DNA of 64,000 bases from contig NIVC01002930.1 of NCBI GenBank assembly GCA_002269645.1, forward strand, positions 65,594 through 129,593, written 5' to 3'. Below, piece after piece: positions 1,650 through 47,982 of this stretch. Under the pieces are notes generated by a model that was not told where the DNA came from, made no database searches, and was given only the letters and a program-made list of their open reading frames with translations. Every line of letters starts with the position of its first letter. Positions within the stretch are counted from its first letter, which is position 1. Source of the stretch: Macrostomum lignano. Taxonomy: Eukaryota. Made by a program: the position numbers and the translations under genes.

Positions 1650-4600
1650 GCCAACCCAATAGCAGCAGCCTTAACATCTTTAATGATGGCAGCTGTACCT
1701 GCATCAACCCGGCTACCAGAGGGAAATCTTCCCCCGATATTACTTTCGCTATGAGTGACCTCTCCTGCAAGGTGACCTGGTCCACGGGCCGAGTATCGGG
1801 TCTGATCATCTACCCATCTAGACCACATTACTTCAGAAAGCCACTCCCTTCCAAAAAACTGGGAGGAGCTGGTACAATTTCAAGAAAGCTGACTGGGGCT
1901 CTTTTCATCGCCACACTGACAAGTTCCTGGCTAAACTCCTAGCAAGTGACTAGCTCTCCATCGACAAGGCTCATTCTAACCTCATCGCCCTGATCACCCG
2001 GGCTGCTAGAGCCTCTATCCCTTATGGAAATGGCAAACGCATCAGGCCTCCTTTCTGGAACGAGCGCTGCCAGGAGGCGGCCAACAACAGAGAAGTGGCC
2101 TGGCTGGTAGCTATGGCGAACCCCGAAGATACTGATGCTATCACAGCCCTTGCCAACGCCAAGGCCGCTGCTGCCAGTATCATTAGAGAGGAAAGGTGCC
2201 ACCAATTCTACGACTCGGTTGCCTTGCTCGGGCCAGGTGATTTGCTATGGAGACTTATCAAACAATATGATGGTTGCCTGCAATCTGCCCACCTGGCGGC
2301 TATCTTCCCCAAGCCAGCTACTGAGCAATCTGTGGCCAAAAAGGCTGTTACCAACCGCCAAAAAGCCGAGCCTTTCTGTGCTGATTACGCGACAGTCTCT
2401 AGGCTTAAAAAGAACAAGGATGTCAACAGACCAATCATCATTGAAGCCCATGTTGCGACTAACACCTGTGATTGCTCCTGCGGGGATCTTAGGACGGATA
2501 TCTGTGCTCCCTTCACCACTACCGAACTCAATGTGGCGACCCATCAGATCAAAAACGGGAAATTGCCCAGAGTCGATGGTATCAATAACAAACTGCTTAA
2601 GCAACTGAGTGATAAAGGGCGAGCTACCCTTCTTGAGCTTTTCAACTGTAGCTGGACCACTGGCGAGGTCCTTGCCACATGGCGATGTGCTGAGATTATT
2701 GCTATTCTCAAAAAAGAGAAAGATGCTAGCGCTACCAGCTCCTACAGACCCATCTCTCTGCTCAGCTGCGTTGGAAAACTGATGGAGCATATGGTCACGA
2801 ACCGGCTGTATTTCTGGCTTGAGACCTGCAGCCTGCTAAACCACAATCAGACAGGTTTCTGTAAAGGACACTCTACCATGGACCAACTGATGCGCATCAC
2901 CCAAGCTATTTTTTATGCCTTCGAGCAGAAGAAACCAGAGCGCGCCATCCTTATCCTGCTGGACTTCGCCAAAGCCTATAACCAGGTGTGGCGCCTGGCC
3001 TTATACACAAAAATGGCATGGCTTGGCATCCCCAAGCATGTTATTCACTTCATCAAAAACCTCCTCTGCGACCGTCGCGCCTGTGTGCGCTGGGGGGGCT
3101 GCAACCTCCAACTGGAAAGTCTTCTCTGATGGCCTGCCCCAGGGGTCGGTCATTGCACCTCTGCTATGGCTTGTTTACGTCCATGACATTGACGACGGCA
3201 TCAACAAGAGCATCCACCATTCACTTTTCACCAATGACACGGCACTTCTGGCAACGGGCCGGTCAATGAATGCCTGCGCTGCGAAGATCCAACCTGCGCT
3301 GGACCATGTCATTACATGGACTAACAAATGGAAGGTGACGCTGAGCCACTCTAAATGCATCTTCACCACTTTCACGCTGAACCACAGTGAATGCGGTGGA
3401 AAGGTCCTTCTGACTCTGCACATTGAGGGTCAGGAGCTTACATACAATCTGTCACCTACTTTCCTCAGTCTACACCTTGACGATCAATTGACTTTTGCTA
3501 ACCATGTCAAGGCCATGTGCCAAAAAATGGCCAATAGGTGGCGCTGCCTACAAACCCTTGCTGGCAAGGTCTATGGCACTCATTGGACCACGCTGTGCAC
3601 TGCCTACATGGCCTACATCAGGTCAGTGTTTGATTACGGAGCTGCCATCTACTTCAATCACGCCGCGCCCACTCTCAGGGACAAGCTGGAGGCTGAACAA
3701 CATAAGTGCGCACACATCATCACCTGATGCCTCGGTGTCACGAATTGCCACTCTCTGCTTGCCAAAGCAGACCTTCCGGCACTGCACCTCTGCGCCAAAC
3801 AGCTCCTCAGCAATGAATTTATCCGCATCATGAGCCTGCCCAATGATGACCCAGCGCGAGAGTTGCTGTCGATCGCGCCACCGCCACGCCTCCGCAGCAG
3901 GGCGAATGAAACCTGGAAGTGCGAGGTCGGCCCCAATAAACCTGTCGATATTCTGAGATGGGACGAAGACATTACCTTGAGCAACAAACCTTGTTTCTGC
4001 TGCATTGGACAGTGGCTGTGCGAGCTCGCTGGGTTCCACCTGGAGGATCTCATGCGCCCTGTCGAGCCCGCACTCCCGCCATGGCACTGGCTGGATAAGC
4101 AGGTGACCATCGCGGTTGACCTGGTTGCCGCCACGTGCCGGAGTGACCCTCCCGACTTCTGCCGGGAGATTGCTGAGAGGACGCTGGGCCTCCTTCATCC
4201 GGCGGACGTGCTCATCTGGACCAATGGATCCACCCGGCCAGATGGCACTGCATCTAGAGGAGGAGCTGTTATCACCTCGGACCTTTTGGGTATCCAGAAA
4301 GATGTCTATGTGCCGGCCAGTTGCTGGAACAGTAGCACCAGTGCGGAACTTGTTGCGATCGAAGCGGCCCTTGCCTACCTGGCTGAGCTTCTCCATAGTG
4401 GCGGCAGCCTGGCCATTACTGTCAGGCTATGCACAGATTCCTGTGCCAGCCTCCAAACGATCCTGTGTGGCCTGACTATTGCGGCAGACAATGTCACCTG
4501 ATGCGTCTGGACTAATATCGCTGCCCTGCCGAGTGGCTGCAAAATTCACCTACAATGGGTGCCAGGTCACGCTAACCTCCCTAGGAACAAAGCGGCTGAT

Positions 4601-12341: not shown

Positions 12342-12464
12342 ATTATCTTTATCATGAATTTATTCATTATCTTTAACTTTTATTTATAAACATGAAAATT
12401 GAGCTATGGATTGCAAAGCTATGAAAGAAATTCTGGGAATTTTTAGGATACCCCCCATATATTG

Positions 12465-13320
12465 TGATGTGTCCCTTATTACCCGACTTTCGATAATCAA
12501 GGAACAATCACTTCTAGCTCAGCAGCTAGGCAACCCAGTAAGTCAACAGAAGGTATTCAATTACCTTGAGTCCTTTGGAGATCTCTCGGAGTAGTTCTCG
12601 ATTGTCTTCAGTTGCTCTCGTATAGTCACTTCTGACTTTCGTTTGTAGAGCGGGTCCGATTCTTCTTTCTTCTTCAAATAGTTCCGGCCGGATTCTGTTG
12701 CTCGGACCAATGGGAAGCTTCCGAATTAACAGTGGGATCCCTGCGCCAAACTGTGGTCTAAATTAAGCCTCCTTCTTCGAGCAGTGCCTCTATGCACTCT
12801 AGGTATAGCTCCGGAAACCACTGATAGTCCTCTAAGATCTATCAGGGGCAGTCCTTCTGGAGACTGCAACCAATGGAGTCTAAACAGACTCAAGAGTCTC
12901 AACAGACTCAAATAGACTCAAGTCTCAATAGACTTGAGCGAGACGTCTCTAACACAACGGCGCAAATAAGGAAGGCTTACCGCAACAACTCGACCGAGTC
13001 TCGATGGACTTGGTATATCAGGAAGTCCTCCTAAGGCTTCCTCTTCGGAGCGCTCCTCTTCCGTGGGGAGAATGGCTCCGGTACCGCTTCAGATCGCTTG
13101 TATTTATAGACAAGTTTTTGATCCAAAATAGTATCATGACAATTCACGTGTTGCGCTAAAAGGGGAAAATGGCTCATGGCGTATTATTCTGGTAACATCT
13201 TTTTCTGGTAGCGTGATTCATTCAAAGCTTAGGCGCACATGCGTGTACTTACTTACTTATAGTAGTATTATACGATTATCTTCTTTTTTCCTTTTTTAAC
13301 GGGAGGTAGAACACTCTACA
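12465..13320 (-). repeat. 3' LTR (856 bp)
   Basis: Direct repeat of 22171-23025; by eye 3 C/T substitutions and one 1-nt indel. Confidence 0.97.
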
Positions 13321-13500: not shown

Positions 13501-13875
13501 TCAAGTGGCATCAGGTTTGATCCGACACCACTTTCGAAACGTGCAGTCTCGCGGCATACTATCACATAAGGGGCATCCTATAACGCCCCTACTAGCGGTT
13601 TGCTTCAAACAGTGCATGCAAATAAAATGTTGGTGGTTACAATATTGAAACGTGCGCCAAGAATAACAATAGGCACATTGTCGCAAACTATCTCTACAGA
13701 GGGGACAATTCTGCCATGGCTGAATATAATGTGAATCGCTTAAACATTGTCCGCAAACTTTATGTTCGTTGATGCAAATAGTCGGTGGCTTGACAGCCAA
13801 GTCATCAGTTAAACATATCGGGCAGTCATATAGCTGCTGAGGCTGGGGCGCCTGTTTCGACAGTGCGTTGCTCAT
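13501..13875 (-). CDS. Element-encoded 124-aa tandem RING-finger protein (putative E3 ubiquitin ligase)
   Basis: RING1 CPIC-x12-C-x3-H-x2-C-x2-C-x12-CPLCR and RING2 CAYC-x8-C-x3-H-x2-C-x2-C-x11-CPLC. First ATG at 13875 (the track start at 13887 is TTG). Lies between the pol stop and the PPT. Confidence 0.85.
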   Translation of the reverse strand: MSNALSKQAPQPQQLYDCPICLTDDLAVKPPTICINEHKVCGQCLSDSHYIQPWQNCPLCRDSLRQCAYCYSWRTFQYCNHQHFICMHCLKQTASRGVIGCPLCDSMPRDCTFRKWCRIKPDAT

Positions 13876-13995
13876 AATTGTTGTCAATTTGTCGCTGTCT
13901 TTGTGTCGCTCGGATTAGTCGCCTTTTACGACAAGCTTGCGAAGCTGTAGTGCTATTCTTTATCCCGGTCACTACACGGGGTTGCTCTCGAAACT

Positions 13996-16900
13996 CTAGC
14001 GTGGTCGTAGGTTGTAGCCATGTGGCTGGCTCACATCTGTCGTTTGAGTCTCCTCGTGCTTCGTCGCGATGTGGCGGTTCGTTGAACGCGTGCGATCCGC
14101 GTTGTCTAATGTCGGTAGAAACGTCGTGGTGTCAGTGTTGATCTTCTTTAGTCGATGAATGTGTACGTAGAACTGGTGCTGATGTGGATCTTGTACATTA
14201 GCCAGGCGTGCCGTTGTCGGTGACGTTAGTTGGACCACTCGATAGGGTCCTTTATACTTCTGTGCATGTTTATGCGTCTGCTGCGGCGGGTAGTGTAGGT
14301 AAACGATGTCGCCGGCCGTCAGGGTTGTCGATCTCGCGTCGTTGCCGGTGGTCAGAGCCACCTGGTTGTCAATGTTGTGCTTGGCGATCTTCCATGCGAG
14401 GTGTAGCTGCGTGACAAATTTCTGAATGGAAGTCGGTACTTCCACGTACTGCGATGGTAGCAATTGCTGTGCGAGCAGATTCGGCGGTTGGAAGTCTCGT
14501 CCAAACATTAGGAAGAATGGCGTATTGTCCGTTGATCGATGAATAGCGCTGTTGTAGGCCATTGTTACAGATTGCAGGTAGATGATCCAGTCTTCCGGCT
14601 GTTGGTGCGCGAAGTGTGTAATCATCTTGTGCAGGTTGCGGTGAAACCTTTCAACCATGTTTGCCTTCGGATTGTAGGTCGATGTGTAGATCTGCGTAAT
14701 GTTGAGAATCCTTACGACTTGCTGAAACAGCTGCGATGTAAACTGCGATCCGTTGTCCGATGTGAGGTTCTTCGGCGTGCCGTACTTGCAAATGATTTCG
14801 TTGAAGAAACTCATTGCCACTGTCTGAGCTGTGATGTCCGGTATCGGTATGGCGATAGCAAACTTCGAGAAGATGTCCAAGGCGGTTAGGATGTAGGTGT
14901 AGGCGATGCCCTGGAGACAGCTCGGTGGCAGTGGTCCGGTGATGTCGATGCTTAGACAGTCCATTGTAGTCGACTTCGGAATGGACTGTAGCTGCGGTTT
15001 CTGTCGTCGTCCTGTCTTTGATGCAGCACATGAATGGCAGTTGTTGCAATACTGCTTGATGTCGCCGTACATAGTTGGCCAAAAGTAGTATTGTTCCACT
15101 CTCGCGATGGTCTTTGCGGCCGACAGGTGTCCAGCGAGTGGGTTGTCGTGCAGCTCGTTGAGAATTGCTTGCCGAAACGAATATGGTACGTAGATCTTAG
15201 GTTTATTGTCGCTCATCCAGTAGAGCCGTGACTTATTGATTGTTAGGTGTTGTCGTTGCTTGCGTAGGAATTTTCGTTCCATGGGGCTAAGTTTGATGTT
15301 CTTGTCGTCGTCTTTAACCGCTTGGTAGAAGTTGTCGCGCTCGGTTTCATCCACCAACTCCTTGATGTTAGGGATTGGATGAATGGCGTTGACTTCATAG
15401 GCTCTTGACAGGGCGTCCGCGGCTTTGTTGGTAATTCCTGGTTTGTAGACGAGTTTGTAGTTGTAATCCTGTATCTTGAGTGTCATCCTGATGAGTCGGT
15501 TGTTGGTCTGTCCTTTTGTAGTTACGACGTAGGTCAATGGTGCATGATCCGTGCGTACTATCGTCTGTATTGGAGAACCATAGATGTAGTAATGAAACTG
15601 TCGCAGGGCGAACAAGACTCCTAGTAGCTCTCGTTCCGTAGCTGACCACTTTGTCTCATTTGGTTTGAGTGCTCGACTGACGTAAGCAATAGGTCGTTCC
15701 TTCTTGTCCTCGGTTTCCTGTAGTTGGACTGCTCTGAGTCCCGTTCCTGAGGCGTCTGTCTCGATGATGAAGGGCTTGTCGAAGTCCGGATGCTGTAGCA
15801 GTGCGTCTGATGTCAGCTGTCGTTTGATTTCGTCGAAACTTTCCTGTTGTCTCTGTGTCCAGTTGTCTTGCTTCCATTTGTCGAACTTGAGCAGGTCGTA
15901 CAGTGGCTTTGCTGTCTTTGCGAAGTTAGGTAAGAACTTCCTGAAGTATTGCGCAAGTCCAAGGAATGATTGGACCTTCGTTATACTGGTTGGCGTAGGA
16001 AACTTCTTCACCTTTTCCACGTTGTCTGGGTCCGGTGAGATTCCTTTGGCTGTCACCTGATGTCCCAGGTAACGCACGTTGTCTCGGAAGAATTTGCATT
16101 TAGTTGGTTGTAGCTTCAGACCTTGACGTTGTATAAGCGCGAGGGCCTTCTCCGTCGCTTCATAGAGTCGTTCGAAGTCTTCTCCGTGGGCCAAGATGTC
16201 GTCAACATAGTGCAACAGGTTCGTGCATCCTGCAAGCATGTATGCTGTTAGTCGGCTCATCGTTGCTGGGCTGTTGCTGAGTCCCATCGGCGATCGATTG
16301 TACTCGTATACTTGTCCATTGTAGGTTTTGAAAGCCGTGTACTGTCGTGACTCTTTCTCGATTTCAATTTGCCAAAATCCATGACGTAGGTCGAACACCG
16401 TGAACAATTTTGCCGTGTTGAGCTTTGCTAGTAGTTCGGAGATCTTCGGTAGGCTTTGCTGATCCGTCGGTATGTACTTGTTCAACAGTCTGAAGTCGCA
16501 TACGAGTCGTCTTTCGTTTGTCTCCTTCTTCTGTACCAGTAGGCACGGTGAGGAGTAAGCCGAAATAGCTTTGCTGATGATGCCGTGCTTTAGCATTTTA
16601 TCGATGATTTCGTCAAAGTGTTGTTGCAGATGCTTGGCGATCGGGTACGGCTTGCACTGAATTGGTTCCGTGTGCGGCAGAAGTTTGATTTCCTGTTTGA
16701 TGTCCTTGGCTCGTCCGATGTCGTAATCATGATGGCAGAAGGCTTCGTTGTACTTCCACAACAGCTGTCGAACTTTCCTCTTTTGCTGTTCCGTAATCGG
16801 GCTGTCATCCAAATTGATCTTCTTTTGAAATTCTTCCTCTGTTAGTCGTGGAGTCGCTTGTTCAATCAGCATAACCGATGCTTGGGTGTTGAGATGACCG

Positions 16901-17745
16901 ATGCACATTCCTTGTCGTAGATGAACCGTTTCTGTGTTCGGGTTGAAGATTTGTACTGGCAGTTGCTTATCCTTTGCAACCAGCACTAGTGCCGTAGGCA
17001 TCATGATTTGATGTTTTGCCGTGACTCTCCTGTGTGGATCAAATATCATTGCTTCATCTGCCGCGCTGGTCGTTTTCGCTCTGACCCAGCATGCGCTTTC
17101 AGGCTGGATAATGACATCTTGCTGCAGAGTTACTTTCGGTAGTACTCGAATCTGGTTGATCAGCGGTTGCTCCACCGTGTCGATCCTAAACGTTTGCTTG
17201 TTGAAGTCGAAGGTCAATGGTAGTTGAAGCTGCTTGAACGTGTCGATTCCAACGATGACGTCTTGGTTTGGTAGTCTGTCGATGATGTACGTCGGGACCG
17301 TCAGCTGTTTATTAGCAATTTTCAAGTCGATATCTGCTTTTCCTAGGATGTTGAGTGAATGTCCTCCTGCTCCTGCAACTGCGATTGCTGCTGGTCGTAC
17401 CGCGAGTCGTAGCTTGTTGCATAATTGTTGCGAGATGACTGTGATCGAGCTGCCTGAATCCAGTAGTGCTCGACATGGCAAGTTGTTGACAATGACCTGA
17501 GCCATTGCTTTGCCAATCTCGGCGTGTAGCGTACAGACGTAGTTTTCCGGCCATTTTGGCTCGTGCTGTTCTGCTTGATAGTTGGGTGGTTGTATCCTTG
17601 GTGCCGTTGGTGTTGTCGGAATCGATGGATATAGCCGCGTTGCTAGTGTCGGTTGCCCTTGAACCTCACAATGTGCAGTTTCTGTTAGTTCTAAACTGTT
17701 GTCGCTTCCGTTGTCGTTCTTTGCATTATGGCATTCACTGTCTTC
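13996..17745 (-). CDS. pol: Gypsy Pol: protease, dUTPase-like spacer, RT, RNase H, integrase; frame is open from 17745, first ATG at 17505
   Basis: LLDSGS (PR), YVDD (RT), ETDAS/RELLG/TDHAPL/ADALSR (RH), H-x6-H..C-x2-C, SIDITGP/SDNGSQF/VERFHR (DDE), GPY motif, and terminal YNLRPR. Uninterrupted. Confidence 0.97.
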   Translation of the reverse strand, partial: EDSECHNAKNDNGSDNSLELTETAHCEVQGQPTLATRLYPSIPTTPTAPRIQPPNYQAEQHEPKWPENYVCTLHAEIGKAMAQVIVNNLPCRALLDSGSSITVISQQLCNKLRLAVRPAAIAVAGAGGHSLNILGKADIDLKIANKQLTVPTYIIDRLPNQDVIVGIDTFKQLQLPLTFDFNKQTFRIDTVEQPLINQIRVLPKVTLQQDVIIQPESACWVRAKTTSAADEAMIFDPHRRVTAKHQIMMPTALVLVAKDKQLPVQIFNPNTETVHLRQGMCIGHLNTQASVMLIEQATPRLTEEEFQKKINLDDSPITEQQKRKVRQLLWKYNEAFCHHDYDIGRAKDIKQEIKLLPHTEPIQCKPYPIAKHLQQHFDEIIDKMLKHGIISKAISAYSSPCLLVQKKETNERRLVCDFRLLNKYIPTDQQSLPKISELLAKLNTAKLFTVFDLRHGFWQIEIEKESRQYTAFKTYNGQVYEYNRSPMGLSNSPATMSRLTAYMLAGCTNLLHYVDDILAHGEDFERLYEATEKALALIQRQGLKLQPTKCKFFRDNVRYLGHQVTAKGISPDPDNVEKVKKFPTPTSITKVQSFLGLAQYFRKFLPNFAKTAKPLYDLLKFDKWKQDNWTQRQQESFDEIKRQLTSDALLQHPDFDKPFIIETDASGTGLRAVQLQETEDKKERPIAYVSRALKPNETKWSATERELLGVLFALRQFHYYIYGSPIQTIVRTDHAPLTYVVTTKGQTNNRLIRMTLKIQDYNYKLVYKPGITNKAADALSRAYEVNAIHPIPNIKELVDETERDNFYQAVKDDDKNIKLSPMERKFLRKQRQHLTINKSRLYWMSDNKPKIYVPYSFRQAILNELHDNPLAGHLSAAKTIARVEQYYFWPTMYGDIKQYCNNCHSCAASKTGRRQKPQLQSIPKSTTMDCLSIDITGPLPPSCLQGIAYTYILTALDIFSKFAIAIPIPDITAQTVAMSFFNEIICKYGTPKNLTSDNGSQFTSQLFQQVVRILNITQIYTSTYNPKANMVERFHRNLHKMITHFAHQQPEDWIIYLQSVTMAYNSAIHRSTDNTPFFLMFGRDFQPPNLLAQQLLPSQYVEVPTSIQKFVTQLHLAWKIAKHNIDNQVALTTGNDARSTTLTAGDIVYLHYPPQQTHKHAQKYKGPYRVVQLTSPTTARLANVQDPHQHQFYVHIHRLKKINTDTTTFLPTLDNADRTRSTNRHIATKHEETQTTDVSQPHGYNLRPR

Positions 17746-20048
17746 TTAGCTCTTGGACAAGTTTGACTGAAGCACCGTACGATCGATGAAATGATGAAGA
17801 TTGCCGTGACAATCCACACAATGCAAGCACCGTAGAAGATGAATCCTTGATAGAGACTGCCTCTTCCATTGAGCAGCTCCCAGAAGCTATTTGTCCAAAA
17901 TGATTTGATGGCGCTGTCCATTGAAACAAGGACGGGAAATCTTCCTGTCCCGGTTCCTTTGTCCTTTCTTGTGAACAGCTGGTGAATCATCTTGCGTTGG
18001 GTGATGAACGCTTGCAAGAAGTCGTTGATCGTCCATCCTGGTGTTATCTCGTCAAGTTGGATATCGGCGAATGGCGTATACTTCGTTCTGTTGAATCGGA
18101 TTTTCAAATCCTCCATGTCGTAGTTTTCGTCGACGATTACTTCCGGTTCTGTGACGTTTGCTGTCGTTCCAGTTGTTTTGATGACGTGTAGTGCATTGTC
18201 CAGTTGATAGTAGTTTGCTGCCGTGGTGCAAGGTCTCGGTATTGCGGTGCCAACGATGATGTTGTGTACCGTGTCCAAGAATCCCTGAATTCGTTTTCCT
18301 TCGTAGAACGCTTCAATCCTTGGCTTGTCGTAGCAGGTTGTTGACGTGTTCGACGGCAAGATGTTAAAGTGCTGTATCGGCGTGCACTTGTATATTAACA
18401 GATGCTCGTATATTGGAACTGCCAAAACGTTCGTCATTCCGGTGATTTTACGAAAAGTCATCGTAGGGTTGACATAGTAGTTTTGTCTGGCATAATTTAA
18501 GTTGATTGCGTGCATTTTGCAAGTTAGCTGGACCAGTGTTCGATGCAAGTGGTTTAACTGGTTGTGTAGATTGTGATCCAAAGCCGTTATCTTTGCTGAC
18601 AGTAGTCGGTTTGACACCAGTTTGGGACGTTCGATGTCACGTCGTCGTCTGTTCTGTTGTTCCTGCTGTTGATACGTTCCGTTGATGATCGCCAGAAAGG
18701 TTTGTTTGTCGTCATCTTTTACGTAGACTGGTATCTCTTGTTCCGAGATGAATAGTGTCTTGTCTGTATCCTTGCATTTCAGTTTTTGCTCGACTGGTTT
18801 CTTTTGAAACGTCAGTGCCAAGTCTCCTGACTTTGCCAAAAACGTATTTGACAGTAGTCCTCCTTCAACTGTGTGATACTTTTGAAGCTTGCAGTCAATT
18901 TCCGGCTCAACTTCCCACGCGAAGAAGTATTGTCGTGACTTAGATGGTTCTTCATATCGTGAGTCGCCTCTGCGTATAATTTGCCATCGATAGTCTTGAT
19001 GATATGTTGGACTCAACGGTAAGCTGTATAGTTCCTCATTCCGCAGTATCGGCGTTGGACACCATCCTTTGCTGTATCGGCAGTCGCTTAATTGCAGTTG
19101 TAGCGACTCCATTTTTTCAAAAGGATTGTGATAGAATGGAATATTCCTGATTAGGTAACTGTTTCGTGTCATGTAGTTAGTCCATGCTTCCGAAAAGTGT
19201 ACATATCGTCCGTTTGCTGAGTTCTTCGTTCGGTAAAGTTGTGCCTCCCCCACTTTCTCATCCGGTTCTAGCTGACCATCCTTTGAGAACAGTGTTTGGT
19301 TCCATTGTAGACATTCAGCGTGCGACACATGTAGTTCGTGTTGCCAAAATCGAATTCTGTTCCACTGTCCTCGCCAAACTTTTTCCACTAGGTGCTTGTC
19401 TCTAAAGCACACTATTCCGAGTTGTCGATGCTTCTTGATGTTAGCTTTGTAGAGATCAATTGTGATCTTCTTTGGCTTCGTCTGGTTTGTCTTGAAGTAG
19501 CTGCATTTGATGTCGGTTGGTATCTTGTAGATCATTGGTTGGATATGCGCATCCGTTGGACATATCATTGGTTTCTCCATTGCCGTTGCTTTGGCGACTA
19601 CTGCTATCAGTAGTATCACGATGATCCAGAGCAGCCAGTTTTTCCACTTCTTGGACCTTGCCGTTGTCTTTGCTGGCATTGGCTGCGATTGCCATTCGTT
19701 ATCCTCCATGTCCGCATCGTATTCTTTCGGTTGTTCCATTGGCTGATTCAGGCGGAAGGCTTCTGATTTGCTTTGCTCTTTGGTTATTTCAGTATCTTCG
19801 TCTGTAGCTTCTTCCGATGTTTCCGTTGTTTCACTCCATTGCGTTTGGTATCTTTTCTCTGCCTTGTAGTCGACCGTTTGAATATAGGCTTCACCATTTC
19901 GTTTGTATCGGATCTCGTAGCATTCGTCGCTGTCGGAACTCGGCTTTTCTTTCATTTGTTCTTTTTCCATTTCTTCATCTTTCCATTGTATTTCGTAGCC
20001 TTGATCGCTGTCGGAACTTAGATTTTCCGCTCTCAGTTCTTCCTGCAT
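17691..20048 (-). CDS. env: Envelope glycoprotein, herpes gB-like class III fusogen, preceded by a ~137-aa acidic leader
   Basis: Internal signal WLLWIIVILLIAVVAKATA (AxA cleavage motif), 12 ectodomain Cys, 6 N-x-S/T sequons, furin site RRRR (18639-50), a gB domain III/IV-like stretch, and C-terminal TM FIFYGACIVWIVTAIFIISSIV. Confidence 0.85.
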   Translation of the reverse strand: MQEELRAENLSSDSDQGYEIQWKDEEMEKEQMKEKPSSDSDECYEIRYKRNGEAYIQTVDYKAEKRYQTQWSETTETSEEATDEDTEITKEQSKSEAFRLNQPMEQPKEYDADMEDNEWQSQPMPAKTTARSKKWKNWLLWIIVILLIAVVAKATAMEKPMICPTDAHIQPMIYKIPTDIKCSYFKTNQTKPKKITIDLYKANIKKHRQLGIVCFRDKHLVEKVWRGQWNRIRFWQHELHVSHAECLQWNQTLFSKDGQLEPDEKVGEAQLYRTKNSANGRYVHFSEAWTNYMTRNSYLIRNIPFYHNPFEKMESLQLQLSDCRYSKGWCPTPILRNEELYSLPLSPTYHQDYRWQIIRRGDSRYEEPSKSRQYFFAWEVEPEIDCKLQKYHTVEGGLLSNTFLAKSGDLALTFQKKPVEQKLKCKDTDKTLFISEQEIPVYVKDDDKQTFLAIINGTYQQQEQQNRRRRDIERPKLVSNRLLSAKITALDHNLHNQLNHLHRTLVQLTCKMHAINLNYARQNYYVNPTMTFRKITGMTNVLAVPIYEHLLIYKCTPIQHFNILPSNTSTTCYDKPRIEAFYEGKRIQGFLDTVHNIIVGTAIPRPCTTAANYYQLDNALHVIKTTGTTANVTEPEVIVDENYDMEDLKIRFNRTKYTPFADIQLDEITPGWTINDFLQAFITQRKMIHQLFTRKDKGTGTGRFPVLVSMDSAIKSFWTNSFWELLNGRGSLYQGFIFYGACIVWIVTAIFIISSIVRCFSQTCPRAKKTVNAIMQRTTTEATTV

Positions 20049-20208
20049 TCCTTCTTCGGCTCGGTATCCGTTCGTGCATCATGCACCTCGCAGTCGTGAT
20101 CGTTGCCGTAACTTATACATTCTTCTTCTTCCTTCATTTCTTTGTCTTTCGTGCTTGTTTTGTTGTCATCCACTGTTGTCGATTCATAGTTGTTTTGTCT
20201 GCCAGTCT

Positions 20209-21464
20209 TCATCTTTTCTTCGTTGCCGGTGTCGCTCTCCGCCTCCTCCCTTTTTTGTGATTTACTTTCTTCCTGTTTTCTCTGCTGTCTCCGGTGGTCT
20301 CTTTTAATTCGATCATTTCGGTTTCATTCGCCTCTTCTGTGTTGTCAGTGTTGTCCTCGTGCGTCGTCTTCTTTTCGATCAAGCTGATGTCAAGTTCCGG
20401 GACTGTGAAGTCCATTTCCAAGTCGTCAATTGTGAACACTTGCTGTTCCTGCTGCTCATTTTCCGGTGTGTACGTGATGGCATTCGCGTATCGTGGCATT
20501 GCTTGCGTTGGCTGTCTTTGTGCGTACCTGGCATTGCGTGGCCTGTAGCCATTATTTCTGAAGCGGCCGTCATTTCCGAGCGGCCATCATTTCCGAAGCG
20601 GCCATCCTTTCCGAAGCGTCTCATGTCTTGTTGGCGATTTTGATATTGCTGCCATGGTTTCTGCGGCTTTGATTGTTGAATATCTGTCGCGGCTTGTCGT
20701 ATCTTGTTGACCAATGGGACAATTAATCTGATAATGTCCTTCTTGTCCGCAGTAGTAACATCTGGCTGAGGCTTGTTCATTTCGTCTTTTTTGTTCGGCG
20801 ATAGCAGCTGTCTGGTGCTGCATTAATTGTTTAATTGCTGCGTCAGTTTCTGCACTTCATTGTTGCCTGTCGTCATTAATGGGGCACTGGCTTCCCATTG
20901 CATTCCGCACCGCAAAAGGTCTTCTTCGGTTTCGATATTTTCACGCAAAAGTCTATCCCGAAGTGACGGCTGTGCGTTGTTTATTACGTGCAGGATGAGG
21001 TTTTGTTCGCGATCCATCAATCGTTGTCTTTCTCTGGCGGCCAATTCTGCCGCTCCCAGTGGCGGTTGGTCCGCAGCTTGCAGCGGTGGCTGATGCAGTG
21101 CCTTAATTATCTGGCGGATATCGTCCACAAAGGCGAGGAAGGATTCTGTTGCTTGCATCCTTCTGTTATGTAACTTGTGCAGCAGCACTGATCTGTTTGT
21201 GCCGCAACGGTTGAAATGCGCGCGCAGTTGAATGATTAGTGCTGGATAATTTTGCTGTGTTGCCGCATCCAGCTTGCCGTAAATTTCTCGCGCAGTACCT
21301 TGGAGAAGAGGTGGCAGCAGCTGTGCTTTCTCTGGATTTTGTAGGTTGTATTCCCTACATACCAGGTCAAAGTGGTCGACAAATGTGTTAAAATCTTTCT
21401 CCATCGAGAAGGTACCGACCGTTTCTTTGATGTCTCTGTGTACCGTTGGATTGCGCCGCGCCAT
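20209..21464 (-). CDS. gag: Gag (capsid plus CCHC nucleocapsid), broken by 1-nt indels in this sequence
   Basis: Capsid-like FSMEKDFNTFVDHFDLVC..KAQLLPPLLQGTAREIY..NYPALIIQLRAHF..QATESFLAFVDDIR (20823-21464); zinc knuckle CYYCGQEGHYQINC in the next frame; RFG(K/N)DG repeats. Confidence 0.85.
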
Positions 21465-22150
21465 GTTGTTGATAGGATAGAACGGTAGTTCAAGATCTGG
21501 ATCGATTTGTAACGGATCGTCCAGTGTGGTGTTTGCCTCGGAATAAACCTCGACTGTAACGAATTGTCTTGTGGTGTCGATTTGTTATTCGCTGGCCTCG
21601 GATGCGGTGTGGCTTGCTGCCACTGGTTGTCCTCAAATGAACTTGTTCTGTTCGCTTGCTGATTTCGCACTTATGCGGCGTCCCGCAAAGTGTATCTTCA
21701 AGTTGAAGTGGGCTTTGTCTTCTTGTTTTGCAAAGTCTTTTTCTCTTCTTTGACTCTCTCTTTTGTCAATTAACTCCGCTCTCCACGAAGTTTCAATTAA
21801 TTTCGGTTTTGTTTTTGTGCCGGCAAAATGTTTCAGTTATTTTTTGTTTGTTTTGCGTCGACGATTCTTTTATTTTCGGTTTGTTTTCAGTGTACCGATG
21901 AATTTAATTTCGGTTTTATTTTAACTCACACTTGCTCGAGCTCGTTAAAACAAAATTTAACACGCGTGCTCAAACTGTACTCAAATTTGACAGGTGCTCA
22001 AACCTGTACACCAAAATTTACTCGAGTTTCAAAACGTAACGGACTTAAAAAGTGTTAACTCTAACACGTGCGCGCAAAATTAATGAAGTCGCTCTGTCGT
22101 CACTTTACAATAGCTTGATCAGGGCTATTGCTCAAAGTTTGAGTAGTGCC

Positions 22151-22168
22151 GAGAGGGCGAGATCACCA
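22151..22168 (-). other. Primer-binding site
   Basis: TGGTGATCTCGCCCTCTC, 2 nt inside the 5' LTR; TGG complements a tRNA CCA end; the first 11 nt resemble a Trp-type PBS (TGGTGACCCCG). Primer identity not established. Confidence 0.75.
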
Positions 22169-22170
22169 AT

Positions 22171-23025
22171 TGATGTGTTCCTTATTACCCGACTTTCGAT
22201 AATCAAGGAACAATCACTTCTAGCTCAGCAGCTAGGCAACCCAGTAAGTCAACAGAAGGTATTCAATTACCTTGAGTCCTTTGGAGATCTCTCGGAGTAG
22301 TTCTCGATTGTCTTCAGTTGCTCTCGTATAGTCACTTCTGACTTTCGTTTGTAGAGCGGGTCCGATTCTTCTTTCTTCTTCAAATAGTTCCGGCCGGATT
22401 CTGTCGCTCGGACCAATGGGAAGCTTCCGAATTAACAGTGGGATCCCTGCGCCAAACTGCGGTCTAAATTAAGCCTCCTTCTTCGAGCAGTGCCTCTATG
22501 CACTCTAGGTATAGCTCCGGAAACCACTGATAGTCCTCTAAGATCTATCAGGGGCAGTCCTTCTGGAGACTGCAACCAATGGAGTCTAAACAGACTCAAG
22601 AGTCTCAACAGACTCAAATAGACTCAAGTCTCAATAGACTTGAGCGAGACGTCTCTAACACAACGGCGCAAATAAGGAAGGCTTACCGCAACAACTCGAC
22701 CGAGTCTCGATGACTTGGTATATCAGGAAGTCCTCCTAAGGCTTCCTCTTCGGAGCGCTCCTCTTCCGTGGGGAGAATGGCTCCGGTACCGCTTCAGATC
22801 GCTTGTATTTATAGACAAGTTTTTGATCCAAAATAGTATCATGACAATTCACGTGTTGCGCTAAAAGGGGAAAATGGCTCATGGCGTATTATTCTGGTAA
22901 CATCTTTTTCTGGTAGCGTGATTCATTCAAAGCTTAGGCGCACATGCGTGTACTTACTTACTTATAGTAGTATTATACGATTATCTTCTTTTTTCCTTTT
23001 TTAACGGGAGGTAGAACACTCTACA
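22171..23025 (-). repeat. 5' LTR (855 bp)
   Basis: Direct repeat of 12465-13320, adjacent to the PBS. Confidence 0.97.
22806..22813 (-). promoter_or_regulatory. Candidate TATA box of the LTR promoter
   Basis: TATAAATA on the minus strand in U3 of both LTRs (also 13101-13108). Confidence 0.55.
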
Positions 23026-24627
23026 ATTGACCTATTGTTCAATAATAGTGTCTCATATATTATATTTTATAAGAATGACTAGGGCTATATTCATATCAAC
23101 TTTAGCCTACTAATCCTAACCATTAGATGCACATGGAATTGAAAATCTCTTGCTTGAAACATTGACTCTAGTGGACTCTAGGTTCCCTTTACAAAAGCTT
23201 TAAAACTGGAAATATTCATTCATTTCTCTTCTGCTCTACTCCCTATTTATGAAATCCAAGGCTGTATTGGTCTAGAGTGGCCAATGTTATTAGATATTGG
23301 AGCTAGTTAGCTTGTATTAGAAATATGCTCTTAATTTCATATTTATGATATAAACCCTTATTAAAATATTAGAAGCTAACTATAAGATTATATATTTGAA
23401 CCTCAATTCAAAAGCATACCAAAGTAAAGAAAGGTGTTAATGAATAAGAAAAGTTAAAATTATGAAATTTTCTGTAGCACTTCTGAGCTGGTTATCATAG
23501 AAATTGTGTTAATGATACAATAATATTTTTGCATCTTAAATTTTATTCATATTTCATTTGGAGCATCAGTGCTTTTACAATTATTTAGGATTTCAGTGAT
23601 TTCTAGGCTTCTAGTAGCTGTCAAAGTTAAGTAATCTGTAAACCTTGAGTCTGCAGACTTCTGCAACATCTTTGGGTCAGAAAAAAAGTGCGCAAAATCA
23701 CCTAAAAGATGCCTTGGGTTCAGGAAACACTGCCTCTCTGTCTGACAAATAATGGCTTTAATAGCTTCTTAAAAGGTATTTCCAGTTGCACATCTGGGAC
23801 ACTGATTGCTGGTCCCCTGGCCTCCAGATGTCAGGTGTGCAGCGCCACTTCTACTGGAGTATCAAACACCAAATAACCCTTTTCAAACTAAGTGGAGAGT
23901 GTAAAGTCCCAGGATCAAGCCCTAGGGCATTGACGGCTTCATCTCCATGCCAGAAGATGGAGAGCATATTTTCGCTAATTGTTGGTAACGCTAGCCCAAA
24001 CCCGCCAGGCGTTAAAGTTTAAATGGCGATCGTAAAAAGCAAATGGGCGGGAGGCTGTCGAGGAAGAGGGTAGCAGAGGGGGGGGGGACAAAATTGAAGG
24101 GAAAATTTTGTATTTCGGCGTTTTACTGCTTCGCTAGGAGGGAGGGGGGTGGTGTCTCTATCCCATCCGGCTTCGGCGCGATGAAAGCTTTCCACACTTC
24201 CCCAGCTGCCTTATATATCTGTGTATTTCGCTTTGCGCCGCCTCTGAACTGATAGATGGCCAGCCGGGCTTGACTGAAAAAGGCCAGTGGTTGGCGGTGG
24301 CTTTAGCGCTACCATCTGCGCATTTTAGTAAAAAACACCAGGCTGCATCGGAGAGCAGGCGGTGGGGGGCTTTTTCGTCATCAAATGGGCCCAGCTGCAC
24401 GTCCTGGCTGACTGGTATGGGAGGCTTCGGTAGCAGTTTTAACGCCTTCTGTGACCGCTTACTTTTAAAACGTTGCACCATCCTACTGCAGCCTCAAGGC
24501 GTAAGCTAGGCGCAGTGTTAAGGAATCGGATCGACCATACTCCTACTCTAAAATTTGACTTCGCACCAAAAATTTTGGCTTGGCCTCATTTAACCCCGTT
24601 TTATTTTCTTCTGACTGCATTGCCAGG

Positions 24628-28859: not shown

Positions 28860-29210
28860 ATAATCCGCTTCCCCTTGTCTATTAGAGGATAATCCGCTGC
28901 TCCCTTGTCTATTAGAGGATAATCCGCTGCCCCCTGTCTATTAGAGGATAATCCGCTGCCCCTTGTCTATTAGAGGATAATCCGCTGCCCCCTGTCTATT
29001 AGAGGATAATCCGCTGCCCCTTGTCTATTAGAGGATAATCCGCTGCTCCCTTGTCTATTAGAGGATAATCCGCTGCCCCCTGTCTATTAGAGGATAATCC
29101 GCTGCCCCTTGTCTATTAGAGGATAATCCGCTGCCCCCTGTCTATTAGAAAGGATAATCCGCTTCCCCTTATCTATTAGAGGATAATCCCATACCCTCCT
29201 ATTAGAGGAT
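28860..29210. repeat. 29-30-bp minisatellite (GAGGATAATCCGCTGCCCCTTGTCTATTA)
   Basis: About 11 tandem copies just upstream of the receptor exon. Confidence 0.93.
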
Positions 29211-29255
29211 AAATCTAGAGATTTAAGCTCCGTGCCGACCCCCGTTGCCTTGCAG

Positions 29256-31079
29256 TCCGCTTCCCCAGGGCCAGAAATGTCAGGCGGCGGCAGCAGCAGA
29301 CTGCGCGACCGCAACGCCACGGTGATCCTGTGCGCCTGCCAGCCGCGAGATGCCAGGCACTGCCCGGCAGGCCAGTGCGCCACGACCTCCAGCTGTTACG
29401 CCAAGCTGCACCCTACAGCTGGCAGCAGCGAGCTGGGCTGCTTCAGCAACCGAACCGAGGGCCATCACGAGCTGGACAGAATGCAGTGCCGATCCAAAGC
29501 CCGCCGACTCCAGGCCGGCGAAGGCGCTCAAAACGTGTTCTGCTGCGGCAATGCGGACTTCTGCAATAGAAATCTCACTAGCGGCTTGGACATTGGCGAG
29601 ATTGGCCAAGCCGGCAGGACCGCCAGGCTGCCATCGGCTGCATCAACCAGGCAGGCATCTGGCCGGAGCGCTTCGGCTGCATCGCCGGGCGCCGCCGCCT
29701 TCCTGACGCCGGAGCACGCAGCCCTGCTAGCCGTGGTGGCAGCGATGGCCGTAGCCCTGGCAGTCAGTTTAGCGCTGCTATTCCTGCTGTTCCTCAGGCG
29801 TCGTCAACGAAGAAAAGGCGGCGGCGGCGGCGGCAGAGGCAACGTCAACATCGGCATCCTCGGCGGCCAGGCTGACTGCGGCGGCGCTCTGGTGGTGTCG
29901 CCCTCGTCCAGCTACCAGCAGCAGTCGTACGGGCCGCCAATTGCGGTGGCAGCAGCCGCCGATCCCAGACTGCCGGCCTCGCTATCCAGCCAGTGCGTGA
30001 CCGACACCGCGCTGACCAGCTCCGCCCTGACTGCCAGTTTCGACCTGTCATCTGGCAGCGGTCGGGGAGTGCCGTTCCTATTCGATCGCAGCGTCGCCCA
30101 GCAGGTCAAGCTGATCCGGCAGGTCGGCCAAGGCCGCTACGGCTCCGTGTGGGCCGGCCAGTACATGGGCGGCCGTCTGGCCGTGAAGATCTTCTGCTCC
30201 AGAGATGAGGCCAGCTTCCGTCGGGAATGCCAGATGTACACCAGCTTCCCGCTTGGCCACGAGAGTATACTGACATTCCGGGCTAGCGACATTACCAGCC
30301 GGGAGGGCTGCACCCAGTTCTGGCTGATCTCCGAGTACCACCCGCTTGGCTCGCTGCACGACTTCCTTCAACGGGAGCCGCCGCTGCCAGCCCGCCTGGG
30401 CCTTCAGCTGGCCCTGGGCGCCCTGTCCGGCCTCTGCTATCTGCACACCGAGGTTCGCGGCCTGCACGGCAAGCCGGCCATCGCACACAGGGACGTGAAG
30501 TCCAGGAACATCCTAGTGAAGGAGAACCTGACCTGCTGCATAGCCGATCTCGGCCTGGCCGTGGTTGCTAGGGAGAAAGCGCCGCCCGAGATGCCGCCCA
30601 AGTCCGCTCGGGTTGGCACTAAGCGCTACATGCCGCCGGAACTGCTGGCTGACAGCTTCAACTGGCACGAGTTTGAGGCGTATAAATCTGCTGACGTGTA
30701 CAGCATGGGCCTGGTGCTGTGGGAGATCGGCATCCGCATGGTCACTGAGGCCGGCTCGGCGCGGCCCTACGGCCTGCCCTATCACGAATTTGTTGGCATC
30801 GATCCGAGCTTTGACGAAATGAAAGAAATTGTCTGCCAGCGTCAACTGCGACCGGGCCTGCCGGACAGCTGGGCGGACAGCGCCACAATGCAAGCTTATC
30901 AGGCCCTGCTGGCTGAGCTGTGGCATGAGCTGCCGGCTGCCAGGCTGCCAGCCCTGCGAGCTGTCATGGATTTGACTCGGCTGGCTGAGCGACTGCCGCC
31001 GAACTCTGCGGAACTGTTGCAGAAGCAGCAGATGCTGATGGACACGGAGCCACTGTTAGCCGCGCGGAATGGCGTTTAG
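29256..31079 (+). CDS. BMP/TGF-beta type I receptor Ser/Thr kinase, ALK1/2 (saxophone) class; single large exon, 5' end probably incomplete
   Basis: Cys-rich ectodomain ending in CCGNADFCN, TM helix, GS box SSGSGRGVPFL, GQGRYG, AVKIF, L45 loop ASDITSREGCTQFWL (ALK1/2-type SDxTSR), HRDVKSRN, DLG, GTKRYMPPE. Acceptor at 29255/56, ATG at 29277. Confidence 0.92.
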   Translation, partial: SASPGPEMSGGGSSRLRDRNATVILCACQPRDARHCPAGQCATTSSCYAKLHPTAGSSELGCFSNRTEGHHELDRMQCRSKARRLQAGEGAQNVFCCGNADFCNRNLTSGLDIGEIGQAGRTARLPSAASTRQASGRSASAASPGAAAFLTPEHAALLAVVAAMAVALAVSLALLFLLFLRRRQRRKGGGGGGRGNVNIGILGGQADCGGALVVSPSSSYQQQSYGPPIAVAAAADPRLPASLSSQCVTDTALTSSALTASFDLSSGSGRGVPFLFDRSVAQQVKLIRQVGQGRYGSVWAGQYMGGRLAVKIFCSRDEASFRRECQMYTSFPLGHESILTFRASDITSREGCTQFWLISEYHPLGSLHDFLQREPPLPARLGLQLALGALSGLCYLHTEVRGLHGKPAIAHRDVKSRNILVKENLTCCIADLGLAVVAREKAPPEMPPKSARVGTKRYMPPELLADSFNWHEFEAYKSADVYSMGLVLWEIGIRMVTEAGSARPYGLPYHEFVGIDPSFDEMKEIVCQRQLRPGLPDSWADSATMQAYQALLAELWHELPAARLPALRAVMDLTRLAERLPPNSAELLQKQQMLMDTEPLLAARNGV

Positions 31080-41544: not shown

Positions 41545-47982
<6,438 letters not shown>

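Follow-up and report, generated by a model that had tools for sequence, protein, structure and literature searches.

A Macrostomum lignano Gag-Env-Pol errantivirus family predicted to encode one polyprotein, with late-domain-like motifs between Env and protease

The DNA analysed here (the window) is a 64,000-nucleotide stretch of the genome of the flatworm Macrostomum lignano (GenBank assembly GCA_002269645.1, contig NIVC01002930.1, positions 65,594 to 129,593 of the forward strand); coordinates below are window positions. A complete long terminal repeat (LTR) element of 10,561 bp (~10.6 kb) occupies its minus strand from 23025 to 12465. This element is a Ty3/Gypsy LTR retrotransposon (Metaviridae), with protease (PR), reverse transcriptase (RT), ribonuclease H (RNase H) and integrase (IN) in that order, an envelope gene (env) between gag and pol, TG...CA LTRs, a primer-binding site, a purine tract, a 4-bp CAAT duplication and a CCHC-type Gag. 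The two LTRs are 99.5% identical, being 3 substitutions and 1 gap apart. The subject of this account is how Env and Pol are joined in this element and its relatives. Its features, all on the minus strand, are as follows.

22171..23025, minus: 5' LTR, TG...CA, 855 bp; CAAT target-site duplication at 23026-23029
22157..22168, minus: primer-binding site (PBS), 12 nt, TGGTGATCTCGC
20587..21464, minus: gag, with a capsid-like region and one CCHC knuckle; frame-broken in the window copy
19638..20586, minus: linker from nucleocapsid (NC) to signal, acidic and fast-evolving, ANAI motif near its start; frame-broken in the window copy
19581..19637, minus: internal signal sequence by hydropathy, with basic n-region, hydrophobic core and small-residue end
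17847..19580, minus: Env ectodomain, predicted gB-like class III fusogen; furin-type RRRR at 18650-18639; six N-glycosylation sequons
17778..17846, minus: Env transmembrane anchor (stop-transfer) by hydropathy
17724..17777, minus: Env cytoplasmic tail in the env frame, with a VNAI motif, a candidate site for the element's protease
17704..17710, minus: frame break of the window copy, one base shorter than 34/40 copies; probable assembly error
17578..17634, minus: late-domain-like cluster, LYPSI 17634-17620, PTAP 17610-17599 and PPNY 17589-17578
17215..17505, minus: aspartic protease, LLDSG at 17466-17452
13996..17214, minus: RT (YVDD 16209-16198), RNase H, VNAI (15393-15382) and integrase, by domain scan
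13501..13914, minus: accessory open reading frame (ORF) with a RING-like cysteine pattern (zf-RING_2 E 0.0028, below cut-off)
12465..13320, minus: 3' LTR, 856 bp; purine tract upstream at ~13335-13324; CAAT duplication at 12461-12464

The domain scan of gag gave zf-CCHC at 7.8e-6, and the capsid part matched DUF1759 alone, at 0.0025. A pattern search for the priming tRNA returned 1 match versus 3 in the control, which is the level of chance.

In the window copy, env (795 codons, 20078-17691) and pol (1249 codons, 17745-13996) lie in different frames of the minus strand and overlap by 55 nt, as a first-pass annotation made from the letters alone had described. The pol frame is indeed open for 80 codons ahead of its first ATG, which is codon 81 (17505); the peptides quoted there are present, and a scan of the 55-nt overlap likewise finds no canonical X XXY YYZ slippery site. 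The break itself was misplaced in that annotation, which had an extra A in GCT AAG AAG at 17740-17752 fusing the two frames. Of 39 sister copies, not one exceeds the window in length across 17730-17765, and the real length difference lies ~40 nt away, at ~17704-17710, where 34/40 copies are one base longer and 6/40 carry the short form. Pol coding does not reach back to 17745 either: the first 12-13 codons of that frame are not protein, the frame varying among copies and holding a stop in two of them. The same bases read in the env frame are conserved across copies, unlike the -1 reading. Six further sites, in gag and the gag-env linker (~20826, 20716, 20669, 20579, 20255 and 20076), likewise lack one base in the window copy as compared with 23 of the 24 closest copies (the 24th being too gappy to list), and contigs from short reads agree with the longer forms. 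The env-pol offset is one of seven one-base defects of the same kind in the window copy.

Across the family, Gag, Env and Pol are encoded in one frame. A DNA search of the M. lignano genome gave 94 candidates, of which 40 were scored, all with at least 93% identity and the window copy included. At the first 30 loci, the Env anchor and the protease share one stop-free frame in 22/30, and in the 40 longer stretches the anchor continues in frame into the Pol leader in 30/40. Of the 36 stretches in which every marker is present, six have all 14, Gag through to the integrase C terminus, in one ORF of 2,480-2,538 codons. Among 23 further stretches with more divergent relatives, found in the same genome by protein search, nine hold one uninterrupted ORF of 2,458-2,866 codons in which CCHC, hydrophobic segments and protease and RT motifs are present; they include three families, one with 64% Env identity and the other two with ~40% RT identity. 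Database proteins are built in the same way: an M. lignano record of 1,488 aa runs from Env through to integrase in one chain, and several of 18 scanned matches (1,800-3,000 aa, one nematode-labelled) carry Env, protease, RT and integrase together. Between subfamilies, dN/dS is 0.05-0.07 over the anchor and tail and 0.13-0.18 over the late linker that follows. The family thus has both multiple near-identical copies in its own genome and the Gag-Env-Pol order. Against a polyprotein, 30 of the 36 full-length copies are broken somewhere, at scattered places, and a single ORF would give a 1:1:1 Gag:Env:Pol ratio that the scheme does not explain. We are nevertheless next to certain that the family has one ORF of ~2,500 aa, Gag-Env-PR-RT-RNaseH-IN. 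The first-pass annotation had offered a single polyprotein as one possibility; sister copies, hydropathy and database proteins bear this out for the family, and the frame-broken window copy does not show it. We put the probability of the overall explanation, a single-polyprotein family whose window copy is short of single bases at seven places, at roughly 85%.

The Env of this family is predicted to be a gB-like class III fusogen with a signal and an anchor, and its fusion activity is likewise a prediction. A profile of 32 Env relatives matches glycoprotein B (gB) of Epstein-Barr virus at 3.4e-18. Structure prediction was poor from the single sequence (pLDDT 29) versus the alignment-based model (pLDDT 74, pTM 0.54). 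In Foldseek, the latter matches herpesvirus gB at 4.8e-19, but with a low TM-score of ~0.25, and among viral structures (BFVD) it matches nyamivirus-type glycoproteins at ~1e-23, including that of Midway nyavirus at 4.9e-23. The match of Env to PF24664 (1.7e-5) fell below cut-off, and two runs of word-index homolog searches found 2 and 1 proteins.

Strong hydrophobic segments number just two in each long ORF of the window family and the 64% family: one resembling a signal, behind the acidic linker, and, ~600 residues further on, an anchor. The stretch that separates them has a furin-type site and 5-6 sequons. The two distant families show this pair over a shorter averaging span, one of them with a weak third segment inside integrase. 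The acidic linker ahead of the signal is 310-370 aa long in sister copies, with dN/dS of 0.34-0.45. Two hydrophobic segments would therefore leave Gag in the cytosol, the Env ectodomain in the lumen and Pol in the cytosol, a topology that we consider very likely and that the first-pass annotation had already drawn; hydropathy, sister copies and database proteins back it. In flavivirus-type polyproteins, a cytosolic capsid, internal signal, lumenal glycoprotein, stop-transfer anchor and cytosolic enzymes follow one another and are separated by host and own proteases. The likeness is one of analogy only, as the window element instead has a class III fusogen, an aspartic protease, RT and LTRs.

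Two sets of short motifs mark this chain. Three subfamilies carry the motif [AV]NAI at three places each: behind NC, within the Env tail and where RNase H meets integrase (0-1 of 5,000 shuffles). Spotted after the fact, it is a candidate cleavage site of the element's protease; its exact form is absent from the 64% family, which speaks against that role. In the linker from the Env anchor to the protease, LYPSI, PTAP and PPNY lie within 19 residues, each occurring once in the window family's polyprotein. Of 56 copies examined, 54 had a linker that could be found, and P[TS]AP, PPxY and YPxL-type motifs are kept in 53, 50 and 54 of these; all three jointly arise in 0 of 20,000 shuffles for the window family. 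The polyproteins of all four families have [LIM]YPx[LI] a single time, invariably in the anchor-protease linker, and in three of the four families P[TS]AP also falls inside it. A wider comparison covered 48 HMMER matches, three M. lignano-type top matches being excluded. A strict late motif is present in 7/27 distant Env tails versus 1.25 expected by composition (P ~1e-4, with relatedness ignored), and the Envs that bear it are only 18-34% identical to one another. Scrambled motifs gave 1 versus 1.24 expected in the same tails, and in the cytosolic NC-to-signal linkers the motif was found in 1/17 versus 0.47 expected.

Retroviral late domains comprise PTAP, PPXY and YPXL types, PTAP binding TSG101 and PPXY leading to NEDD4-family ligases (PMC8952333). 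The window linker is likewise proline-rich and lies just before the protease. The late domains of retroviruses (HIV-1 p6 and other Gag peptides) are in Gag (PMC8952333), whereas the late-domain-like motifs of the window family stand behind the Env anchor, on the Env-Pol chain; YPXL ends in L and LYPSI in I, and the late-domain role is putative. The M. lignano genome encodes UEV and ALIX V domains; a complex prediction for a host UEV domain with the 40-aa linker scored 0.06 (mark 0.34), which speaks neither for nor against binding. YPXL-type motifs are linked to ALIX. Several results count against a late function. Of the 48 distant matches, 21 were dropped for want of a detectable anchor or tail, and 20 of the remaining 27 tails have no strict motif. 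Taken by itself, PPxY shows no significant enrichment (P 0.10), the motifs had been noticed before the test was set up, and the tails are related to one another. Over its whole length, the late linker is not conserved with the 64% family (32% identity, dN/dS 0.84). Judged from sequence patterns, the late motifs seem somewhat more apt to be functional than not.

A competing account of these motifs is that the PTAP/PPxY/YPxL-like words act in the trafficking or turnover of Env (by endocytosis, ubiquitination or multivesicular body sorting), or arise as by-products where the linker is rich in proline, and play no part in scission. In its favour, their place is the tail of an Env, a common location of tyrosine and PY sorting signals, and most distant tails have none. 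Composition-preserving shuffles fail to account for them, however, three separate late-domain types are packed into 19 residues, and we know of few roles of PTAP outside binding to ESCRT-I (endosomal sorting complex required for transport). We regard this account as plausible, if the lesser of the two.

The single ORF, the domain order, the two hydrophobic segments, the motifs and purifying selection over the junction were observed directly, and from them we infer the following scheme for the family. Genomic RNA would be translated into one Gag-Env-PR-RT-RNaseH-IN polyprotein of ~2,500 aa, whose internal signal would direct the ectodomain into the endoplasmic reticulum. Signal peptidase would presumably then cleave, freeing the ectodomain from membrane-anchored Gag, and furin-type cleavage would prime it. 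The stop-transfer anchor would bring the chain back to the cytosol, and therefore Pol would be tethered to the Env tail and not to Gag. Env trimers and Gag would collect on one membrane, the LYPSI/PTAP/PPNY linker may recruit ESCRT factors for scission, and the protease would cut [AV]NAI-type sites, releasing NC, the Env tail and integrase. We tentatively propose, at somewhat short of an even chance, that in Gag-Env-Pol errantiviruses Pol enters the particle on the tail of a class III fusogen, with ESCRT-recruiting late domains on the same Env-Pol tether and not on Gag, and that this plan, for which retroviruses offer no described precedent, recurs in flatworm and nematode lineages of different RT clades. 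If so, only Env-bearing membranes would bud, and activation of the protease would be coupled to Env clustering. The assembly and cell exit of Env-bearing LTR elements outside Drosophila are largely unstudied. With Env in mid-ORF, packaging has to work otherwise than through retroviral Gag-Pol, and the late-domain-like cluster suggests one specific way that can be tested in M. lignano, a tractable laboratory animal with many near-identical young copies.

The one-base offset of the window copy at ~17704-17710 is very probably no more than a non-functional defect. Contigs from 4/4 public short-read runs, belonging to four studies, carry the longer form at full depth. Across the env-pol region of 37 aligned copies (3 truncated ones were skipped), there are 88 one-base losses versus 0 one-base gains. 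Runs of three or more bases take 28% of the losses and hold 11% of the bases, and 11/37 copies have private one-base gaps without any private substitution. Near 17752, 4/40 copies lack one base through a separate recurrent defect. Such a pattern of one-base losses is what consensus error produces when repeats are assembled from long reads, and the window break is probably an assembly error of that kind. In repeat copies of the M. lignano assembly, one-base losses can thus mimic frameshift signals.

The short junction might instead be genuine, a loss-of-function lesion inherited within a sub-lineage spreading in trans, which would leave the family single-ORF and involve no recoding. This is possible because 4/5 copies of the window's own sub-branch carry the short form, and Env and Pol of the window copy are otherwise open; contigs, moreover, drop rare variants, which limits the support of the four runs, where the short form was not seen. 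Against a lesion stand the loss bias among copies, the six other one-base losses of the window copy and the spread of the short form over three branches, that is, two besides the window's own, once in a copy with 0 differences over 5,551 columns from six in-frame sisters. We consider an inherited lesion unlikely. Whichever its origin, the short junction is not a conserved signal. The first-pass annotation had named beforehand, as evidence against its reading, a junction common to all copies together with pol made from its own spliced RNA or from ATG 17505; the short form is found in 6/40 only.

About as unlikely is that spliced or internally initiated RNAs (Gag-only, Env-skipping Gag-Pol, or Pol from ATG 17505) exist beside the polyprotein and set its stoichiometry. 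In favour, the products of a single ORF would be equimolar, the window family and the 64% family both retain the Met at 17505, and Pfam protease matches begin at about that Met. Splicing that enriches Gag is reportedly known in copia. That Met is missing at the equivalent position in the two distant families, however, and the linker upstream of it is under in-frame purifying selection. No skip joints were seen in the short-read contigs, which are not shown to be RNA and so prove nothing on splicing. The -1 recoding, spliced pol mRNA and ATG 17505 start that the first-pass annotation had listed are unneeded and have no support. Programmed -1 frameshifting at the Env tail, canonical or not, would yield Env-Pol fusion at a low rate, fits the 55-nt overlap in the -1 frame and would lower Pol relative to Env, but it is largely ruled out already and its chance is negligible: 34/40 copies have no offset at the site, the overlap has no slippery heptamer, no in-frame heptamer position is common to the six long ORFs, and the -1 frame of the overlap is not conserved.

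A GAG-ENV-POL order with a gB-type env has been described in nematodes, bryozoans and flatworms, where it is not monophyletic (Chary and Hayashi, eLife 2026, PMC13524379). The main text of that paper speaks of three ORFs 'arranged as GAG-ENV-POL' and never uses the terms polyprotein, single ORF, fused, budding, ESCRT or RING. Its supplement files 2 and 6 list Platyhelminthes_Rhabditophora_Mlig_errantivirus_2, which has a gB-type env, as does the window element. The PBS given for it in supplement file 2 is the exact reverse complement of the window PBS, its LTR is ~863 bp and its length 10,591 bp (855/856 and 10,561 bp in the window), and, like the window family, it is multicopy, with 16 copies listed. 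Database proteins 98% identical to those of the window element are labelled Macrostomum lignano (UniRef/NCBI). Judged by these listed features and the species label, not by sequence, the window family is very probably Mlig_errantivirus_2. The paper's table has one family for Macrostomum lignano; four Gag-Env-Pol families were found here. Mlig_errantivirus_2 is placed there in RT clade S, and all 36 nematode elements in B, R or Y (PMC13524379). In our unrooted 12-row RT tree, the 7 own-genome rows split from 5 database proteins, one nematode-labelled, with support of 100/99.

Another comparison is with the nematode endogenous retroviruses (NERV), for which Sacco et al. 2022 reportedly describe a continuous gag-env-pro-pol ORF, a nyamivirus-like glycoprotein and extra 3' ORFs. 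In kind, the single ORF is therefore not novel. In the window family, the continuous ORF is found in sister copies, not in the window copy, and the top viral fold matches are of the nyamivirus type; its host is a flatworm, not a nematode, and its 3' ORFs are RING-like. Env precedes pol in NERV as in the window family, according to text citing it in PMC13524379. As far as these sources go, the window family is very probably a catalogued gB-type errantivirus that works like NERV and lies outside the nematode clades. The text of Zhou et al. 2015 (PMC4604429) covered here has no description of the window element. A literature search covering few subscription journals, and so a weak negative, found no account of late domains on the Env tail of an LTR element, nor of this polyprotein topology. 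Both the gene order and, very probably, the family have been published before; that literature search turned up neither the late-domain-like cluster on the Env-protease tether nor the proposed model of Env-tethered Pol.

The window copy has one RING-like, Cys-rich 3' ORF, and three related copies that were checked, among them that of the 64% family, have two such ORFs each; in another related copy they are apparently degenerate, and none was seen in stretches of the two distant families. They are possibly captured E3-ligase-like genes. Both LTRs contain a 78-codon stop-free frame on the element strand (22232-22468 and 12526-12762). Divergence between subfamilies is patchy by domain over 16500-21700 (for example, pS is 0.05 in protease versus 0.33 in RT), which suggests recombination among them. 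Contigs C2447, C669, C1130 and C2121 each hold at least two copies, ~10-11 kb apart, and the spacing of 9,729 bp in C2447 fits tandem elements with one common LTR. The divergent families at ~40% RT identity number at least two, one with 2,458 aa and three CCHC knuckles and another with 2,859-2,866 aa. Three distant Env-bearing polyproteins have two protease-like regions, one of which precedes Env in P0034; both follow it in P0048 and P0059.

Elsewhere in the window, a 630-codon frame at 29187-31079 (plus strand) encodes an activin/TGF-beta-type receptor domain and a protein kinase and is a host gene or exon. RT fragments spread over several frames at 1954-3727 (plus strand) probably belong to a non-LTR element, and a coding frame at 41545-42849 (minus strand) has leucine-rich repeats. 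Dense minisatellite arrays with units of 8-45 bp lie in 24700-62000 and are the source of most other long open frames.

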